Assembly (NCBI GenBank): GCA_964406295.1
Contig: CAYORB010000002.1
Location: 658 to 64,218 of the forward strand
Length of the DNA stretch: 63,561 nt
Source of the DNA: an uncultured Candidatus Peribacteria bacterium
GTDB lineage: Bacteria; Patescibacteriota; Gracilibacteria; UBA1369; LOWO2-01-FULL-3
Direction: 5' to 3'
Below are positions 5,263-31,400 of the stretch, in pieces. The notes under the pieces are model-generated. The model was not told where the DNA came from. It was given only the letters and a program-made list of their open reading frames with translations, and did no database searches. Every line of letters begins with the position of its first letter. Positions within the stretch are counted from its first letter, which is position 1. Both the position numbers and the translations under genes were made by a program.

Positions 5263-6345
5263 GTGAAACTTCTGAAACTTCAACTGGAAAATTTTCGTAA
5301 CTACAGCGAACATGTATATGAATTCGACCCTGAAAAGAATTTAACTATACTGGTAGGGAAAAATGGTAAAGGAAAAACAAATTTCCTTGAAGCCGTATAT
5401 CTGCTTTCTCTAGGTAAATCCTTCCGTTCTACTATACATGATGATCTGGTCAAATGGGAGAATCCTTATCTACGCTGCAAAGCCTATGCAAAAAGTGAAA
5501 ATGAAGACATGGAACTTGAAGTTTTTTATTCCCAATCACCGACACGACGTAAAAATTTCAAGAAAAATGAAGTAAATCTAAAACACAGTGATTATTTCGG
5601 TAATTTGCCTACGGTATTATTTCATCCTGAGGATCTAAATATGCTTTATCTTAGCCCCTCTTTGCGTAGACAGTATATGGATGTGCTGCTTTCTCAAAGC
5701 AATAGGGAGTACCTTCAAGCTCTAAGTAAATACAAGAAAACCCTGAAACAACGCAACGCCTTGCTCAATCAGATCAGAGAAGCACGTTTCCAAGGACAAG
5801 ATACAAAAGTACTTCTCGCTGATCTAGACGTATGGGACGAAGAAATAGCTCTTTACGGCCAAATAATAGTCGCTCACAGATCAACTTTTATAGAATTTCT
5901 CCAAACAGAGCTTACTAGGATCTATAGAGACATATCCGGCAATAAAGAAGAAATCCAATGCGTTTACCAAAGCAAAGTTTTAAATAATTACATAGAAAGT
6001 CTCAATGAACGTCGTGATGTGGATCTTATGCAAGCCAAGACAACTAGAGGACCTCATAGAGATGATATTGTTTTTAGCATAGATGCTAAGGAAATATGCA
6101 GTTCAGCCTCCAGAGGCGAGTTCCGTACCTTGCTTTTGGCAATAAAACTAGCCGAAATAGCTTATATACGCAAACATAGAGGCCTTAATCCAATATTGCT
6201 ACTAGACGATGTTTTTTCAGAGCTAGACCCAGATAGACAAACTCATCTCCTAGAAGCAATCAAAGACTGCCAAACCATCATCACCACCACAGAATTACCT
6301 GAAATATGCGAAAAAGAAGGGGAGTGGGATATTGTTAAATATTAA
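5263..6345 (+). CDS. recF: DNA replication and repair protein RecF
   Basis: GTG start. N-terminus LKLQLENFRNYSEHVYEF...LVGKNGKGKTNFLEAVYLLSLGKSFRS (Walker A), SMC-like signature SRGEFRTLLLAIKLAE and Walker B LLLDDVFSELD. Confidence 0.9.
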   Translation: MKLLKLQLENFRNYSEHVYEFDPEKNLTILVGKNGKGKTNFLEAVYLLSLGKSFRSTIHDDLVKWENPYLRCKAYAKSENEDMELEVFYSQSPTRRKNFKKNEVNLKHSDYFGNLPTVLFHPEDLNMLYLSPSLRRQYMDVLLSQSNREYLQALSKYKKTLKQRNALLNQIREARFQGQDTKVLLADLDVWDEEIALYGQIIVAHRSTFIEFLQTELTRIYRDISGNKEEIQCVYQSKVLNNYIESLNERRDVDLMQAKTTRGPHRDDIVFSIDAKEICSSASRGEFRTLLLAIKLAEIAYIRKHRGLNPILLLDDVFSELDPDRQTHLLEAIKDCQTIITTTELPEICEKEGEWDIVKY

Positions 6346-11067: not shown

Positions 11068-11224
11068 CACTATATAAACATCACTAATTTGCACACAAAG
11101 GTATCTTTGAACCAATGCATCAATCTGACTTCGCCTATAGAAAGTATAGACAGATCGCTACTCAGCGCTATTGCTTTTTCAGTATTTCATTGCTAAACTG
11201 CCTATCCGTGTAAAAACAACATTG

Positions 11225-14113
11225 ATGGCAAACGATAAAATCATAGTAAAAGGGGCAAAAATCCACAATCTCAAAAATATTGATGTGGAAATTCCTCGTG
11301 ATAAATTTACAGTAATTACTGGACTTTCTGGCTCAGGTAAGTCATCTCTTGCCTTCGACACCATCTACGCAGAGGGGCAGCGTCGCTATGTCCAAAGTCT
11401 ATCGACCTATGCTCGAAACTTTCTGCAATCTATGGAAAAACCAGAAGTCGATTCTATTGAAGGATTGTCACCAGCTATATCTATCGATCAAAAAACAGCT
11501 TCTCGCAACCCGAGATCTACTGTTGGAACCGTCACTGAAGTATATGATTTTTTGAGACTGCTTTTTGCCAAAGTAGGGACACCACATTGTCCAAAATGCA
11601 CCAAACCAATTGAGAGACAAAGTCCACAGCAAATATTAGAGGATGTGGCTAAAATGAAAGAGGGGACAAAAATACTTGTACTTTCGCCTATTGTACGTGG
11701 TCATAAAGGTCAGCATTTGAGAGCAATTGAGAAAACCAAAAAGGAAGGTTTCGTACGTGTACGTGTAGATGGAGAGGTTTATTCCATACTAGATGTTCCT
11801 GAACTGGATGAGAATAAAAAACATGATATTGAGATCGTTGTTGATAGGCTTGTTGTAAAAGATTTTGGGAAAAAGACTAAAACTCTAAATTCTGGACAGG
11901 TTATAGATCTTCCAAACCCAGATCGTACTCGTATGGCAGATTCAATTGAAACTGCATTGAAATTTGGTGAAGGCTTGGTCTATATAGCAAATAACGACAC
12001 AGGTGATACAAAGGTGTATTCAGAGCATTTTGCTTGCCCTGCATGTTCAGTAAATTTACCGGAAATTGCACCTAGAAATTTCTCATTTAATAGTCCTCAT
12101 GGAGCTTGTGAAGAATGTCACGGACTTGGAACTAAACTGGAAATCGATCCAAACCTTGTTATGCCAAACAAGAAATTGAGTCTGGCTGAAGGAGCTATTA
12201 TGCCTTGGTCTACCACAACTTCTCATTTGAGTTGGTATAACAAATTATTGGCAAAAGTAGCAGAGGTTCGTAAATTTCCTATGAATAAACCCATTAAAGA
12301 TTTGCCAGCTGAAGCTTTAGATATTGTTTTGTATGGAGATAAAGATATGAAATATAAAGTGGAAATGAACAAAGGTGGGGAAGGTTCCGGTTTTAATGGC
12401 GAATATGAAACTACTTTTGAGGGAGTTATACCAAATTTAGAACGTCGTTATCTTGAAACTGATTCTGATTATGTTCGTAAAAAGATTGAAGGTTATATGC
12501 GTATTCTTCGTTGTCCTGTGTGTGAGGGAAAAAGGTTAAAACCTGAGATGCTTGCAGTAACAATTAATGAACTTTCGATTATTGATATGACTGAATTATC
12601 TATAGTTAAAGCTATAGAGATTTTCTCTGAACTAAAATTAAGTGCAAATAAAACAGAAATAGCAAACCAGATACTTCAAGAAGTGAAAAATAGACTTCAA
12701 TTTTTGGAGAATGTGGGCTTGTCATATTTAACACTTAATCGTACAGCAAACACTTTGTCAGGAGGAGAGGCTCAGCGTATACGTCTGGCTACTCAGATTG
12801 GATCACGTCTTTCAGGTGTTGTTTATGTTTTAGATGAGCCAAGTATAGGTTTACATCAAAATGACAACGACAAATTAATTAAAACTCTTTTAGAGCTTAG
12901 AGACGTAGGAAATACGGTTATTGTAGTAGAACATGACATTGATACTATGTTGGCATCTGATTATATTTTAGATATAGGCCCTGGTGCAGGTAAGCATGGT
13001 GGTAATGTTATAGCGCGTGGTGCTCCTGCTGAATTGATGAAAGATAAAAATTCGATTACTGGTAAATATCTATCAGGAAAAGAAGAAATTTCTGTTCCAA
13101 CAGAAAGAAGAAAAGGAAATGGTAAAGAAATTACTATTGTAAATGCAGCTGAACATAATTTAAAAAATATAAGTGTTAGCTTTCCTCTAGGAGCTTTTAT
13201 TTCTGTAACGGGCGTATCGGGGTCAGGTAAATCAACCTTGATTAATGACATTCTCGTAAAGAGCCTGTCTAAGGAGTTATATAGATCAAAAGCTATGCCA
13301 GGTGCACATGAAGAGATTACAGGGCTGGAGCACTTAGATAAGATAATTAATATAGATCAGTCACCAATAGGACGTACTCCACGATCAAATCCAGCTACTT
13401 ATACAGGTGTTTTTACTGATATTCGTGATCTTTTTGCTCAAACTCCTGAGGCAAAGTTGCGTGGATATAAGGCTGGTCGATTTAGTTTCAATGTAAAAGG
13501 TGGTCGTTGTGAGACTTGTTCAGGTGATGGTATTAAAAAGATAGAAATGCATTTCTTACCAGATATTTATGTACCATGTGAGGTATGTAAAGGGAAGAGA
13601 TATAACGAGGAGGCTTTGGAAGTGAGATACAGAGGTAAGAACATTTTTGAAATTTTAGAGATGACTGCCGAAGAAGCACTTGAATTTTTCCAGGCTATAC
13701 CAAGTATCAAAACTAAACTTCAAACTCTTGTAGATGTTGGTCTTGGTTATATTCATCTCGGACAGTCAGCTACTACTCTTTCAGGTGGAGAGGCGCAACG
13801 TATAAAATTATCAACTGAGCTATCAAAACGATCAACAGGAAAGACTATTTATATACTTGATGAGCCTACTACAGGTTTGCATTTCGATGATGTAAAAAAA
13901 CTTCTTACAGTTCTCCAGAAATTAGTAGATATGGGGAACACAGTTTTAGTAATAGAACATAACCTGGATGTTGTGAAATCCGTGGATTATATAATAGATA
14001 TGGGACCTGAAGGAGGAGACGCAGGTGGAATGGTTATAGCTAAAGGAACTCCTGAAGAGGTGGTTCAGGTAAAGGGGTCATATACAGGTAAATGGTTAAA
14101 GAAATTGATGTAA
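11225..14113 (+). CDS. uvrA: excinuclease ABC subunit A
   Basis: Canonical UvrA N-terminus [55 protein letters not shown]. Two ABC modules (second Walker [11 protein letters not shown]; signatures [12 protein letters not shown] and [12 protein letters not shown]) and zinc-finger CxxC pairs. The ORF track starts at a TTG at 11171, but the ATG at 11225 fits UvrA homologs better. Confidence 0.97.
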
Positions 14114-14309
14114 TCCCCGGGGATGAGCTTGCAGGGTATATTTTTAAGGGTAAATAGTTTGAGTGAAGGCATTGGCTCTACCAGAATAAAAGAGAAAAAG
14201 CGATGAATCTGCGAAACAGATTTAAACTTTTTAAGTTTTTCCTTATTAAAAAAGCGCCTCCCTCCCTGGGGAGAGCATGAAAACCCCTATATTCCACCCT
14301 AAAAACATT

Positions 14310-14590
14310 GTCTTAAGTTTAATTAAGTTGCCTAAAGTTTAATAAACTTTAGTAAAATCGTCTAAAATTTAATTAAATACGCTAAAATTTAGTCAAACAG
14401 GGGTTAAGTCGTCTTAAATTTAATAAAATATAAAAAAGTATTGCTAACTTAAATTAAGTTTGATAAATTTATCTTACGTTAAGCATAGCTACTTAAAAAC
14501 AAGGGAGTATTGATAAATTGTTCTAAATTTGCTAAAGTTTAATAAAATTTACTGAAGTTGAATTGAATTAAACTAAGTTAAATAAAGTTA
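14310..14590. repeat. array of at least 9 degenerate direct repeats, consensus about CTAAARTTTAATWAA
   Basis: Copies start at 14312, 14332, 14362, 14382, 14413, 14444, 14532, 14552 and 14573; 14332 and 14532 are identical. Spacings of 20, 30, 20, 31, 31, 88, 20 and 21 bp are mostly near-multiples of one helical turn. TTGATAAATT also occurs twice (14460, 14510). Confidence 0.8.
14510..14538 (+). promoter_or_regulatory. candidate sigma70-type promoter for the HTH gene, overlapping a repeat copy
   Basis: TTGATA (14510-14515), 17-nt spacer, TAAAGT (14533-14538). The -10 element lies inside the repeat copy at 14532. Confidence 0.3.
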
Positions 14591-14905
14591 ATGATCGAAA
14601 AGTTTTTCACCACAGAACAAGTTGCCAATATTCTTCAAGTTCATCCTTTCACCATTTTGAAATTCATCAAAGCTGGAAAATTGAAAGGAATCAAACTTGG
14701 ACGAGTCTATCGCATCAAAGAAAGTGATGTGAATGAATTTCTTGAATCAAGAATGACACAGAGCTCGCCAAAGAAAAAAGTAGTTGCTAAGCCTTCTAAA
14801 GAACCAAAAGCAGAACAAGCACCTCAAACACATAAAACTGAAAAACGTAGCCCTTACGACCTGGAAACAACAAAGAAGGATGACGATCATTACTATCTAA
14901 TCTAA
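14591..14905 (+). CDS. excisionase-family (MerR-superfamily) helix-turn-helix DNA-binding protein with a disordered K/E/P tail
   Basis: N-terminus FFTTEQVANILQVHPFTILKFIKAGKLKGIKLGRVYRIKESDVNEFLESR matches the excisionase-type HTH pattern (TIGR01764-like). The C-terminal ~50 aa are low complexity. Confidence 0.75.
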   Translation: MIEKFFTTEQVANILQVHPFTILKFIKAGKLKGIKLGRVYRIKESDVNEFLESRMTQSSPKKKVVAKPSKEPKAEQAPQTHKTEKRSPYDLETTKKDDDHYYLI

Positions 14906-14920
14906 ACACATTCAAATACC

Positions 14921-15094
14921 ATGATCATTCACTGCCTCTCATGCGGAAAGTCCATCTCAAGTCACGGGTGCAAATGCCCATACTGCATGGCAGAAATGAC
15001 AGACATAACATTTGAATTGAACGGAATAGAAATGGAAAAACCCAGATTTGCTGATAAATTTCGTAACGTAGTCCTGGGAATGGTAACTAAATAA
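14921..15094 (+). CDS. 57-aa zinc-ribbon protein, not in the ORF track because it is under 60 aa
   Basis: My own translation: MIIHCLSCGKSISSHGCKCPYCMAEMTDITFELNGIEMEKPRFADKFRNVVLGMVTK. It has CxxC...CxxC spacing. It starts 15 nt after the HTH gene stop and is followed by the terminator at 15176-15209. Confidence 0.45.
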   Translation: MIIHCLSCGKSISSHGCKCPYCMAEMTDITFELNGIEMEKPRFADKFRNVVLGMVTK

Positions 15095-15175: not shown

Positions 15176-15209
15176 CTAAAAAACTCTCCCTGCCCGGGAG
15201 GGTTTTTTT
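15176..15209. terminator. bidirectional rho-independent terminator between convergent units
   Basis: Stem CTCCC (15186-15190) pairs with GGGAG (15196-15200) around a 5-nt loop. An A-run lies upstream and T7 downstream, so a U-tail is available on both strands. Confidence 0.7.
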
Positions 15210-25400: not shown

Positions 25401-28400
25401 TCAAATCTAACCTTTGGCATTTGCTTTATTGCCATACTGTATTTGATATTACGCATAGAATTAGCTGGGACAGAAATACCTTCAATAACATGTGAACGCA
25501 TAGACATACCAGTTTCTTGCCAAGTCAATTCATCACCACAATTAACGTCTATACACGTCAAAGTATCAGGAAGTAATTCCATGGACAATGCCGTGGCATC
25601 TGAAAGCATTAAGTTATTAATATTGGAATTGCTATTATTTTTTAAAGTGATTATGTAATCAATTTTATCACCCACATCAGCATTTTCACCATTTATATCT
25701 ATAGCGATTTTACTTGAGTTAACACCAAATTTAGTATCAGAAGATAGTTGCACAAAATCAAACTCTCGTGAAAACCTAAGAGCAGGAATATAGGACTCGG
25801 CCATCTGAGAATTACTTTCAAAAGCTGCTTGGGCCGCAATCGCTTGCTGCGCAAGCTCATCACCCGGCTTCGGCTCATCACTTTTTAAAGAAAACTGCAA
25901 TACTTTGTTTTCCACCAATCTAATCCCAGGATAATGTATAAAAACACTATCCTTTTGGTTTTGATTTTGATCAATTTCAAAACCAAAATCCCAATCACGA
26001 GGAGCTTCACTATCCAATCCAACACATTCTCCGTCTTTGATTTTATTATGATAAACAGATATTTGACCTGAAGAATTACTGACCACCAAATCCTCACAAC
26101 CATCAAGATTCATGTCATCAGATTTCATTTCATATATCTTTTTACCATCCAGCGCCAAATCCAAACTGTATCTATCAAACCCACCACCATTATTCATATA
26201 AAGTGAGACACATTCTTCCTCAGCATTACAACTCTCATTTGTCCCAACAACAATATCATCATAAGAATCGTTATTCACATCTATTTTAGCCACACTCAAA
26301 ACCTCTCCGAAAATATTCAGTACAATTCCTTTCTCCACATAATTCCTATTACTAATAGAATTCTCCAATAACTTAACAACACCATTTTTATAAACTAGAA
26401 GTAAATCCTCACGCCCATCTCCATTCATATCAAACTCAAGCATTTCCTTAATCTGCTCCTGACCGTTGTAAAGTTGTTTACCAAGATCACGACTATATCC
26501 ACTGCCATTGCTTACTAAATCCTCTTCAATATCAAGACTTATCATCGGATCACCATAAATAATTCCGACTTCAGAAGCATAGGGCATATGAGATTCTCCC
26601 ACTGAATTACCAGCTGCAAATAATAACATATGTTTATTTTCTCCTTGAAACCCAAGTCCAAAATTATTATTAACATCTTCTAATGAAGTCTGAGCAAAAC
26701 CAGGTTTATGTTCAGGAGCCAATGTATTTTCTTTATCCACTAAATACACACCCATAGGATGAGCAGTAGAATTCCTACTAAAAGAATCTTCTAATCCATA
26801 TTTTTTTGAATTAGAAGCAAGTTGAATAGCAAGACCAGGGAAAAGATTATTCCTACTACTATCAAAATTCATCTTCCTAACATTTTGACGGAAATTTTGA
26901 TTAATACTCACGACAGCATAAGGCAGCTCATTATAAGTCACAACAAAGGTCAAATGACTTAAACTAAGGTTATCATTTTCTTCAGGCAATCTAACAGAAA
27001 AATCATCACTATTAAGAAAAACTCTACCCAACTTATCAATCCTCACATGTCTTTCGCTACCTTCTTCTATGTATATCTCATCACCAATCAATTTAGCTTC
27101 AAGATTAGACTGTGGACTAATAATTTTCACATAAACACCTTCTTCTTTTGCATTTAATTCTTGTTCATTTTCCAGCAAACTCAATGCCAGCTCTTTAGGT
27201 TTCACCAAAAAAGTAGCCAATTCTTTTTTAGCGATTCTGTCAGATAATATAATTTTATGATAATCAAGTTTCTTAGACGCAGGAACTAAAACCGATTCAA
27301 TTTGATTAGACATGAGTTCTATAACTCCATAAGCGTCCACTGAAATCAGTTTTTTATATCCATCTGGATCAGCTGTTATAGCGCTCACGACTTGCGACTG
27401 CCCATTATACAAAATTTTCTGAGCCAAATTCTCTCTTAGCAATTCGTCACCAAAATCACCACCAAGTAAAGAAGTATACAAAGATCTAGGCGCAAATTTT
27501 TCTACATCACTAGCTCTAATAAATTTTTTCACATCCAAAGATAAATACGCAGAATCTAAGTCAGGGGATTTAGCCACAAAATTAACTTTACCAGATTTTC
27601 CTTTACTCACAATCTGAGTAGAAGCTATTCCTTCTAGACTTAGAGCACTTGCAGCCTCAAAATCAATAAGTTCATCACCAGCTTCACTCACAGCAAACTC
27701 AACTCTCCTTCCATTATCTTTACTTACAAGATTCCCAAAACTATCCAAAAGTCTTGCTTGTAGAAAAACACTTTCCTCAGGATTAGTACTTATAATTTTC
27801 TCAGAACTTATTAACTCAATTTGAGTTGCTTCACCAGCAACAGTTTTCAATTTAGCGTTTGTAGAGGCAAAACCTGGCACAGTAATAGAAATTTCAACAT
27901 TACCGGTTAAGCTAGAAGATTGAAACAGAGCATCAGCCGCTTTAACCACTCCAGCCTTCATTTTTTCTGCTGCTTGATTCTTAAATCCACCAAAACTAGA
28001 GGTCAAAATCTCAAAATCAATAGGTCCATTATAACTTCCAACCACTTGATCTTCATAAAGCATAGTCACTTCAAATCCAGCAATATCAGATTTATTTGCA
28101 AGGATTTCATCCACAGTATTAAAATTTCTATCCACTATATCTACAGCCAGCTCCACGCTATCCACCACATCAAGCGTGACAGAAGCTCCTATTTCATTCA
28201 CAAAATCAATCTCTCTCCATCTTTCACCAACTTCAAGAAATCTATTCTCCAAATTCCTATCCATCAAAACAAAAATCAGATGAGCTAAACCAACCTGATC
28301 CTTAGCTATTACATCCAATTCAGCTACACCTTCCATTGTATTTAACTGAGTACCCACAATCACTGAACTCATATCCACACTCGGATTTATTTCAACAACA

Positions 28401-31400
28401 TCATTACTAAATACAGCAACTTGAGAGAAATCATTATTCGCCAAATTCCCAAACTCATCATAAAGTGAAATCGTGAAATGCGATTTCGATTGATTATTCG
28501 CTACTAACAAAAAGCTATTAGCTTCAACTTCTATAGCTACAGGTTCTCCAGCTTCTAATTGTATTTCTTTCTTAGCATAAGGATAAATACCTTCACTAAT
28601 AACATCAGCACGTAGATTTACAAAACCAGTTTTAGTCCCAGTTTTTATACTAACAAAAGCGATTCCATTTTCAGTGCTAACAACATTTTCTCCAACAAAT
28701 TCAGCCAATTCATTATCCAAAGAAAATTTTAATTGATGTACGACATCAGAATCAATACCATCATTTCCCCATACTTGTACTTCAAATTCCATTATGCCTT
28801 CACCATCAGCAACAAGAGCATCTTCATCAGAGAAAATTTTAATCTCATTATTAGTAGAATTGATTTGAACAGCATTTGAAAATAAACCTTCATCAGTTTT
28901 CACTCTAAGGGTAGCCATACCTACAACATCACTTGCTCTTAATTTAAACTCAACTTTACCATTTTCAAATTGCTTAGAATCTGAACTCGTAACATCAAAA
29001 GCGACTTCCTCTTGAACAATTTCAAGATTACCTAGTTCTTTAGCATTCACTATCGCATTAGCATTTTCATCATAAGCAGTTCCGCTTACTATCACTTCAT
29101 CAGAAGTTTTCGTAGAAGCAACATATCTATCAACCTCCAATTCTATTCTATCAATTCTAGTAAGAGGGATTTCATTATCATCAAAATGAAAATTCGGATT
29201 AAATCCACAGGATTGTTCAAAATTCGGCACTGAAGTAAATCCGTCTATAAATATTTCCAATTCTTTAAGAAATTGATCCAACCATACAAACTCCCAGTCA
29301 TCTTCATCACCTTCTTCTTCAATAGCTTCAATATCCCTACCTTGTCCAACTCCAATATTTTGCTCCAAAGCATTAAACTCAGAATCTTCCTCAGGTAAAT
29401 CCTTATTAAAACTCATTCCAAAATAATCTTCCTGCCCATCAAACACTAAATAACTAGCTTCATATCCATTACTAGAATCATTTATATAAGCATCATGTTC
29501 CTTATCTCCATTCAAATAATATTCCAAAACATAATGATGTTTTTCATCTATATTCATATTTAACCAATCCAAAGCATCAGATAATTTCGCAGTAGAAGCT
29601 CTGCGTAAATTAAAACCACTGATCGGATAATCAGTAATATTAGTCACAACAGTGGCCAGATATTTATTTACTATTTCAGTTTCAATTTCTTCAAAAGTAT
29701 AAGTATTCGGTGCAGCACTTGGATCAATCAACATCTGAGCACCAGGCAAGCGAGACAACTCCTTAGCCTTATCACTTACGGCCTTGCTTACATCACTAAT
29801 ATCAGAGATTTCTTCATCAAAAAGATTTATATAATCAACTTTAGCAGTGAGACCCGAATGCGCCTTTGGAGTAGTGGGTTGAGTTTGAAACGCCACATAG
29901 CGTGGATTATCTATAGGCAAAGAAAACGAGTTTTTAGACTTTATCTGCTGGCTAATAGTATAAGGCGTTGGTTCATTGTGAACGATAATAGAGGAAATTT
30001 CACTACCATTTTCAGACTCAAATTGATGCGGATTTACGTTTAAAATTAAATCAGTATTAAAAACTTGTCCCCAGTTTTCTTCAGTCACTTTTTGTCTAAA
30101 TGATTCAGAACCAAAAGGGATAGTGTAAGTAGTTTCGTGAGAGAGTAGTTTTCTTGAGATTTCTGGCAAATTTTCACCATCTAAACCAAAAGCAGGATTA
30201 GCTTCTTCATAATCATAGAATTTTGTTTCAGCAACGCCATCCTCATCTTCATCAATAAATTTAAAATCAACAATTCCATCACCATCATTATCAATCCCAT
30301 CAAAAAGCCCAAAATGATCAGAAAAATTCGCAAGTGAAACAGATTCACCTAATGTATTAAGCATAATTTCACTAGCATTTAATTCATCCATACCTAACCA
30401 AATACCTTCTTTTGGACTAAAGTCACTGCTATCTTTTGGGGCACCACCATGTACATAATCAGGCTCATCACCCAAACGACTATCTGCAAACAAAGCAAAA
30501 GATTCCATCAACTGTCCATACCAATCAAGATCAAAAGTAGGAGCAGCACCAGGATTTCCAGTTGAAATATCTAAAACAAATTCATAAGGATTAGAATCAC
30601 TACCGCCTTTTTGATACGAAGGTAATCCAACACCAAAACAAGAATTAAGATAAACATCATCAATATCTTCAAAATCATTGGATGGAAATTTATATATATC
30701 CACTGAATTCTCCCAATCACTTACCCTGCCGGAATTTATAAAATCATTAGTCTTTTTAACATTTACAGGAAACTGAAGCACAGGCTCATCTTGACCAGGT
30801 ATGGTCATTTTAATTGGTGCCAAACTACCAGCAGGATCCAAAACAGGAATAGAAGCAACTCTGCCAAGACATCTATCACTATTTCTGAAAGCGGAATTTG
30901 CATTACATCCAGCCGAAGCATCATAAGCCTGACTGTTATAACCTAAGACATCATTTTCATATAAAGTAAACAGAGCACCATCACTATCACCCCAGTCACC
31001 TGGGAATTCTATATTTTTAGGAAAAACTGCAAACTCAATATCAGGTTCACTTTCAGGATCTTCATCCGTTGTTTGTTTTATATCATCAGTATCTTCATGA
31101 ACTTCAACAGTAAAACTAACATTTTCAGAACGTTTTTCATTACCACGATAATACTCAAAATTAATCACACCTAAAACACTTAACACACGAATATCTTTTA
31201 ACTTAGGACTTGATATCAATTCATCCGCATCATCCCAAATTTCCAAAGGCGCAGGCAATTGAGCCAAGGGATTATTAGGATCAAACCTCATAATTTCATC
31301 TTTTGAAGCCACATTAAATTTAAAATCTTTCAAGCTATCCAGTTCCTCATCTTTTATGGCATCCATAAATTTAACAACCTCATTATAACTCTCAGCTATA

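Follow-up and report, generated by a model that had tools for sequence, protein, structure and literature searches.

The 477-bp gap between uvrA (11171-14113, + strand) and a gene encoding a 104-amino acid (aa) winged-helix protein (14591-14905, + strand; referred to here as the HTH gene) in an uncultured Candidatus Peribacteria bacterium contains, at positions 14310-14590, a phased array of 10-bp direct repeats. The window in which it was analysed is the whole stretch of 63,561 nucleotides (contig C2:658-64218), part of a genome of 1.18 Mb with a G+C content of 35% that is distributed over 70 contigs. The array is probably the operator of the adjacent gene, bound head-to-tail and cooperatively by the winged helix-turn-helix (wHTH) protein which that gene encodes, an arrangement that would allow the protein to regulate its own synthesis. 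This assignment draws on the sequence anatomy of the array, its uniqueness in the genome, the directionality of its units, their overlap with promoters, the fold class of the protein and the co-conservation of array and gene at the level of the class.

Repeat unit, clusters and candidate promoters

A first-pass annotation of this DNA had described the region as at least nine copies of a motif of about 15 bp. The array itself proved to be real; the unit did not, as autocorrelation, tandem-repeat finding and a position weight matrix (PWM) gave a unit of 10 bp occupying approximately twenty phased positions. The consensus of the PWM, which was trained on related loci, is AGTTTAATAA (~14 bits) and possesses a near-palindromic core, TAAANTTTA. 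Base autocorrelation at lags of 10, 20 and 30 bp is 0.53, 0.53 and 0.49, respectively, against ~0.25 off phase. The Fourier spectrum peaks at exactly 10.0 bp, with a 5-bp sub-harmonic also present, and 10 and 20 bp are also the periods found by Tandem Repeats Finder. With sliding 280-bp windows the periodicity score is 0.289 here, compared to a genome mean of 0.001 (standard deviation 0.019; z ~15), and the best ten of the 28,538 genome windows ranked by 10-bp periodicity are all located in the array region. The array is the most 10-bp-periodic DNA of the 1.18-Mb genome.

Searches with individual words give a similar picture. The genome has 76 copies of the core TAAANTTTA, six of these within a single 300-bp span here and at most two in every other 300-bp span. 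Runs of at least two units at 10-bp spacing number five in this genome, three of them in the array, and the complete genome of a relative, G007 (998 kb), contains a single such run, at the orthologous locus. When at most one mismatch is allowed, the 15-mer CTAAARTTTAATWAA is found within 14310-14590 on the + strand at 14312, 14332, 14362, 14413 and 14532 and once on the − strand; a seventh copy, at 14382, carries two mismatches. The series of spacings reported at first pass (20, 30, 20, 31, 31, 88, 20 and 21 bp) can be read from the sequence, with the copies at 14444, 14552 and 14573 being degenerate. The 15-mer was considered unique to this gap within the window, and indeed it has no match with at most one mismatch elsewhere in the 63.5 kb; genome-wide, six of the eleven matches at this stringency fall in the array, and three of the remaining five come from a 135-nt repeat of contig C29 that is not related to the array. 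A generic AT-rich word, equally frequent in other intergenic DNA, was rejected by the genome-wide scans for the 15-mer, for periodicity and for runs of units.

Eleven + strand units score at least 6 bits (14316, 14336, 14346, 14366, 14386, 14417, 14447, 14457, 14536, 14566 and 14576), and all of them lie in register 0 or +1 (modulo 10) across 270 bp. Approximately ten degenerate units occupy most of the positions between these strong ones, resulting in the ~20 phased positions, which are grouped in three clusters. Array A, the distal cluster (14312-14395, + strand), consists of eight consecutive 10-bp positions with strong units at 14316, 14336, 14346, 14366 and 14386 (PWM 8.5-13.4 bits, all in register 0) and holds the best periodicity window of the genome. 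Array B (14417-14466, + strand) has units at 14417, 14447 and 14457 in register +1 (PWM 7.8-11.6 bits). Array C, the proximal cluster (14526-14590, + strand), consists of six to seven 10-bp positions with strong units at 14536, 14566 and 14576 (PWM 6.2-13.4 bits, register 0); it spans the -10 element of the proximal promoter described below and the entire 5' leader, up to the ATG of the HTH gene. The helical phasing initially suggested for the repeats was confirmed, with a period of 10.0 bp and one register (±1 bp), and it holds in more than 60 related loci.

Two conserved candidate promoters of the sigma-70 type appear to precede the HTH gene. The putative proximal promoter, P1 (14510-14538, + strand), has TTGATA at 14510-14515, a spacer of 17 nt and the extended -10 element TGcTAAAGT at 14530-14538, with 9/12 consensus matches plus the TG in the promoter scan. 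It corresponds to the promoter TTGATA-17-TAAAGT that the repeats had been proposed to overlap; the scan recovers it at this position, and it is conserved in relatives, with the form TTGaAA/TTGTAA-17-TGnTAAAAT in an alignment of 20 loci. In most of these 20 loci the first unit of cluster C starts within the -10 element of P1 (TGGTAAAATTTAATAAACTTTAATAAA...). The candidate distal promoter, P2 (14441-14469, + strand), has TTGCTA at 14441-14446, a spacer of 17 nt and TGaTAAATT at 14461-14469, and 18 of the 20 loci in the alignment have the conserved block cTATTGAAAA-N17-TGnTAAatT at its place (general form TTGaAA-17-TGnTAAatT). The last two units of array B (14447 and 14457) fall inside the P2 spacer. 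No Shine-Dalgarno sequence could be read before the HTH gene or before the zinc-ribbon gene that follows it.

A conserved box, CTTAAAAACAAGGGAG (14492-14507, + strand), is located between P2 and P1, where it abuts the -35 element of P1 on its 5' side. It is near-invariant as AAAACAAGGAG / CTTAAAAACAAGGAG in the 20 aligned loci, and its candidate roles are those of an UP-like element or of a part of the P2 leader. In the form CTTAAAAACAAGGAG the box resembles a Shine-Dalgarno sequence, and no conserved open reading frame (ORF) follows it. A small ORF over the AAACAAGGAG box was rejected, as the reading frames differ between loci.

Conservation of the array and of the winged-helix protein

The related records examined are metagenome-assembled genomes of Candidatus Peregrinibacteria, Peribacteria or Gracilibacteria, members of the candidate phyla radiation (CPR). 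The HTH gene is present as a single copy in 53/61 of these relatives. The order uvrA, array, HTH gene, zinc-ribbon gene and a convergent operon of surface proteins recurs in 40/45 named Peregrinibacteria loci; the zinc-ribbon gene lies directly 3' of the HTH gene in 40/45 related loci and was also seen in translations from the distant families f7 and f41. Homologous loci keep both the array and the HTH gene, in 43/43 loci of Peregrinibacteria and in 17 to 20 of 20 loci of other families. For Peregrinibacteria, 43 loci with at least 200 bp of upstream sequence were scored in 200-bp windows over a 6-kb locus. In every one, the most 10-bp-periodic window lies 150-470 bp before the ATG, and the 43 scores (0.109-0.326) are all above 0.099, the highest value among 20,251 control windows taken from these loci. 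An independent set of loci also possesses a periodic array before the HTH gene. Eleven other families of the class contributed 20 further loci: 17 score higher than all 3,854 control windows, and all 20 lie above the 99th percentile.

The array is kept at loci whose upstream neighbour is not uvrA, showing that it follows the HTH gene. It occurs in genomes ranging from 24% to 51% G+C, and a sister family at the upper end of this range retains AT-rich units that are the same as elsewhere. The units are strongly directional: across 44 loci, TAAAGTTTAA occurs 75 times compared to two for its reverse complement, and TTTAATAAA 113 times compared to 13, oriented toward the gene. Unit positions T3, T4, A6, T8 and A10 are 93-100% conserved in the related loci, and the phase-folded unit, A.TT[T/A]AATAA, is essentially unchanged across the class. 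The three-cluster layout is conserved as well, with a cluster of three to six units at the relative place of array A in more than 40 related loci and a conserved counterpart of array B. On the protein side, the recognition helix and wing (LQxHxxTxLK[FY]IK and GRVYRI) are near-invariant across the class.

The protein encoded by the HTH gene (14591-14905, + strand) comprises an excisionase-family wHTH domain (aa 1-55), a disordered linker rich in K, E and P, and an acidic C-terminus ending in HYYLI. Its membership of the excisionase family is supported by PF12728 (HTH_17; 52.2 bits, cut-off 27) and TIGR01764 (49.9 bits, cut-off 28.8). The best matches by sequence in the PDB are the BldC-DNA complexes 6AMA and 6AMK, followed by Xis of mycobacteriophage Pukovnik. 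An AlphaFold2 model based on an alignment of 24 orthologues has predicted local distance difference test (pLDDT) values above 90 for aa 1-50 and below 60 for the tail; its topology is beta-alpha-alpha-beta-beta-alpha over aa 5-55, and no coiled coil is predicted. Foldseek places BldC (6AMA/6AMK) at the top, with a target-normalised template modelling (TM) score of 0.77-0.86, a root-mean-square deviation of 1.3-1.9 Å and 32-37% identity; Xis, RdfS, RacA and the centromere-binding domain of pSK1 Par come next. Model and Foldseek search together describe a stand-alone wHTH fold lacking the coiled coil and effector domain of MerR. A classical MerR regulator, which possesses a C-terminal coiled-coil dimerisation helix and an effector-binding domain and binds a palindromic operator in a promoter spacer of 19-20 bp, was rejected: the tail is disordered and has no long helix, the units are repeated directly, and both candidate promoters have 17-nt spacers.

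In the alignment of the 24 orthologues the wHTH domain is almost invariant, the charged linker is variable (30-95 residues) and the acidic C-terminus is conserved, ending in HYYII. This ending has no convincing counterpart in the other ORFs of the genome: four of them fit a loose pattern for an HYYII-type ending, all without the acidic-HYY context. In other orders of the class the homologues are mostly of 56-70 aa and have neither the tail nor HYYII, and the array is still present. The tail (residues 85-104 and the orthologous regions) also possesses a semi-conserved mid-linker motif of the form aromatic-x-hydrophobic, such as PYDLE, HFDL or NYDLE. Together with the terminal acidic-HYYII, it resembles in outline the acidic, hydrophobic C-terminal tip of single-stranded DNA-binding protein (SSB), or a degron.

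Proposed autoregulation and alternative explanations

In the proposed mechanism, the 104-aa winged-helix protein would recognise the 10-bp unit A-N-T-T-T-A-A-T-A-A and form a head-to-tail chain on the DNA, with one protomer per unit. As the units recur every 10.0 bp in one register over 270 bp, the protomers would sit on nearly one face of the helix, and so binding should be cooperative and bend the DNA. The location of the units on the same strand, their 10-bp spacing and their 75:2 orientation are an indirect sign of head-to-tail binding. Cluster C, if occupied, would cover the -10 element of P1, the start site and the leader, and cluster B would cover the spacer of P2; occupancy of both would therefore be expected to shut off the synthesis of the wHTH protein and of the co-transcribed zinc-ribbon protein, making repression the likely sign of regulation. 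Cluster A, 90-200 bp upstream, may nucleate or stabilise the assembly, possibly via looping. Of the three options that the first-pass annotation offered, the operator array is the best supported, given that BldC and Xis are the closest solved relatives of the protein, that the units are strongly directional and that two promoters are covered. Iterons at an origin are not supported, and for a partition centromere the evidence points neither way.

Several observations weigh against this operator assignment. The score of the protein for the NCBIfam BldC subfamily (NF033787) is 20.7 bits against a cut-off of 77, so it was treated as BldC/Xis-like in its working and not as a member of the BldC family; the residues K26 and H46, which contact bases in BldC, are replaced here by F20 and V39, and the period of the array is 10 bp compared to 9 for BldC. 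Covariation between protein and unit across families was not informative, since both sides are almost invariant, leaving the link between protein and array as one of association. It would also be odd for a conserved regulator to target only itself, as the array, being the sole dense site of the genome, might suggest. Lastly, intrinsic curvature is to be expected of phased A3/T3 tracts and could by itself stimulate promoters, with no protein involved.

This last point leads to an alternative that appears rather unlikely: that the array is curved, easily wrapped promoter DNA which acts independently of a protein to boost two weak promoters lacking Shine-Dalgarno sequences, or that it is bound by another protein, either HU/IHF-like or the zinc-ribbon partner. 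The phasing of AAA and TTT runs at exactly 10.0 bp with a 5-bp sub-harmonic, the placing of clusters A and B at positions from which UP elements and upstream curved DNA work, and the position of cluster C in an A/U-rich leader without a Shine-Dalgarno sequence are all in keeping with this, and the wHTH protein as binder is something that we only infer. Yet curvature needs no fixed word, and here five unit positions are 93-100% conserved, with a 75:2 strand orientation maintained across genomes of 24%-51% G+C. Furthermore, no other promoter of the genome has anything comparable, and the array accompanies the HTH gene even next to a different neighbour. An improbable reading is that of a centromere-like or anchoring site, in which the array would be the sole chromosomal landmark for a wHTH nucleoprotein complex and autoregulation a by-product. 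The disordered tail and HYYII might then recruit a segregation or positioning partner, as in the single-protein systems of pSK1 Par or RacA; with small probability, in Peregrinibacteria lacking ParB, a wHTH polymer on this one dense site would tether or position the chromosome through the tail and HYYII, possibly with the zinc-ribbon partner. It gains from there being one dense array per genome, from the presence of centromere-DNA-bound pSK1 Par and RacA among the fold matches, from a conserved tail with an invariant C-terminal motif that is on no other protein of the genome, and from pSK1 par, whose centromere repeats are upstream of its own gene. A ParB_N domain was looked for in five Peregrinibacteria genomes (this one, G007, G019, G037 and G045; three of them 100% complete by estimate) and found in none; this proves nothing, as absence of ParB is common in CPR bacteria. 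Against it, the short orthologues of most other families (56-70 aa) lack the tail and HYYII and still have the array, no coiled coil is predicted, and in two complete genomes the locus is not near dnaA, unlike most chromosomal centromeres.

It is highly unlikely that the repeats are iterons of a replication origin or a polar terminus resembling rtp next to TerI/TerII in Bacillus subtilis. The cumulative GC skew of the window does peak at ~14 kb, with genes converging just downstream and recF 8 kb upstream; in G007 the locus lies 46.5% of the circle from dnaA, and a polar barrier could well be built from directional units. Within the window, however, the skew changes where the coding strand switches, and dnaA is located on contig C8 in this genome and 464 kb from the locus in G007. 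The GC-skew check proposed at first pass for an origin or terminus was negative: the skew of the complete G007 is ~-0.3 in every 20-kb bin and shows no switch at the locus, and sampled skew in G037 changes near 0-75 kb and 600-675 kb and not at 232 kb, where the locus lies. There are no DnaA boxes and no Rep gene; an iteron origin would be expected to have an adjacent Rep or DnaA gene and to lie at a GC-skew minimum. Least probable of all, to the point of being scarcely credible, is that the units are arm sites for an excisionase (recombination directionality factor, RDF) of an integrated mobile element. The protein does match the excisionase family, and Xis proteins bind phased direct repeats; against this stand a single-copy gene in 53/61 relatives, synteny that is constant in 40/45 loci, the lack of a recombinase gene in the conserved neighbourhood and units that surround promoters and not a crossover core. 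Neither a cognate integrase nor an att site nor a mobile-element location was found.

Flanking features and comparison with known systems

The spacer between the uvrA stop codon and the array (14114-14309, unstranded) is genome-specific and outside the conserved module. These 196 bp have no counterpart in relatives, in which the uvrA stop is 20-60 bp from the first unit, and have no second copy in the genome. A palindrome, CCCCGGGG, is located at the uvrA stop, and the terminator scan identified a terminator-like hairpin with a T-run on the minus strand (14257-14274), which would fit a short divergent transcript out of the array. Searches of spacer and array for structured RNA gave no Rfam match even at E <= 1. 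Downstream of the HTH gene are the zinc-ribbon gene, a bidirectional terminator-like hairpin and a convergent operon of secreted and surface proteins. The zinc-ribbon gene (14921-15094, + strand) starts 15 nt 3' of the HTH gene, is its conserved operon partner and encodes a 57-aa protein with a CxxC...CxxC arrangement, for which profile searches gave no family match. The hairpin (15184-15200, unstranded, with terminator-scan matches on both strands) separates the HTH/zinc-ribbon unit from the surface-protein operon.

A recF-like gene (SMC_N) is located at 5263-6345, 8 kb 5' of the array. As dnaA lies on another contig, this genome does not keep the usual dnaA-dnaN-recF cluster in one piece. 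G007 (PGYE01000001.1; 998,424 bp in one contig) has a one-signed GC skew, yet its ORFs of at least 200 aa are found on both strands (339 versus 280). A similar one-signed strand disparity has been described for a Microgenomates genome, with Peregrinibacteria given as having typical skew curves (PMC7143001).

Three other HTH_17-like genes of this genome have no periodic array upstream. On contig C9 (~28370-28800), another HTH_17-like ORF and the DNA upstream of it contain the heptamer GTAGACA/TGTCTAC at least 20 times, with copies in both orientations; a repeat field and a small HTH gene are thus paired at a second, unrelated place in this genome. The ~135-nt direct repeat of contig C29 (5786-5925 and 6986-7126) occurs on both sides of a thioredoxin-reductase-like gene. 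The second copy ends in perfect inverted repeats of 21 nt (GCTAATTAAATTTTAGCTAAG ... CTTAGCTAAAATTTAATTAGC). The repeat, for which Rfam gave no match, could be a miniature inverted-repeat transposable element or a structured RNA.

CPR bacteria (Patescibacteria) are uncultured, and their gene regulation and DNA organisation are almost unknown. In this case the sequence by itself is enough to name both a DNA-binding protein and the target that it probably binds. The unit (A.TTTAATAA) is sharply defined, the geometry is fixed at 10.0 bp and two candidate promoters are mapped by conservation; given also the class-wide conservation, this makes a putative filament-forming BldC/Xis-like regulator testable in vitro without culturing. 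If the locus were instead a chromosomal landmark, it would represent a system like those of pSK1 Par and RacA, in which one protein provides centromere function or anchoring, but located on a chromosome and conserved across a CPR class.

Among known systems, RTP of B. subtilis is a winged-helix protein with sites just upstream of its own gene, which it autoregulates. The predicted arrangement here is alike in combining a winged-helix protein with sites just upstream of its gene. RTP belongs to a different winged-helix family and binds as dimers to imperfect inverted sites, and, unlike at TerI/TerII, nothing marks the present locus as a terminus. The winged-helix fold of pSK1 Par (8CSH) and RacA (5I44) also matches, and both have many repeated sites for one small protein; the repeats of pSK1 Par are upstream of its own gene, and its C-terminal region is disordered. 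In contrast to these systems, the locus here lies on the chromosome and not close to the origin, the protein has no predicted coiled coil and a role in segregation is hypothetical.

Lambda-type Xis proteins form cooperative head-to-tail filaments on phased direct repeats approximately one helical turn apart. Together with mycobacteriophage Xis and RdfS (4J2N, 8DGL) they share the fold and the Pfam/TIGRFAM family of the present protein, and RdfS is described as oligomerising (PMC11963761). The difference is that the gene described here is a core chromosomal gene in conserved synteny, with no integrase, att site or mobile element, and that its repeats lie on the gene's own promoters.

BldC, another small stand-alone MerR/Xis-like winged helix, is the best match by both sequence and fold. 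In Streptomyces (6AMA, 6AMK) its sites are 9-bp AT-rich direct repeats, AATTxxxx(C), on which it was shown to assemble head-to-tail into multimers that vary in length and distort the DNA (Schumacher et al. 2018, PMC5859096). The likeness extends to the targets: short AT-rich direct repeats at promoters, in varying number, to which BldC binds directionally and with bending, as is predicted for the present protein. The two differ in the unit (10 bp, A.TTTAATAA, compared to the 9 bp of BldC), in the extent of the array (~20 phased positions in three clusters compared to two to four repeats), in the base-contacting residues and the score below the NCBIfam BldC cut-off, and in the presence here of just one dense site per genome. 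The disordered tail with its C-terminal HYYII and the zinc-ribbon operon partner also set the present protein apart from BldC, and hint at an extra layer, such as turnover or the recruitment of a partner, that is absent from BldC. A search of the accessible literature found no paper linking BldC-like proteins with Patescibacteria or Peregrinibacteria; if the proposed operator is correct, the BldC binding mode, mainly studied in Streptomyces, would also operate in a distant phylum and on an array that is much longer and has several clusters. A small autoregulating wHTH protein on phased direct repeats is a known kind of system; the present one differs in its 10-bp unit, its ~20 positions in three clusters over two candidate promoters, its single site per genome, its tail motif and zinc-ribbon partner, and in being conserved throughout a class of the CPR.

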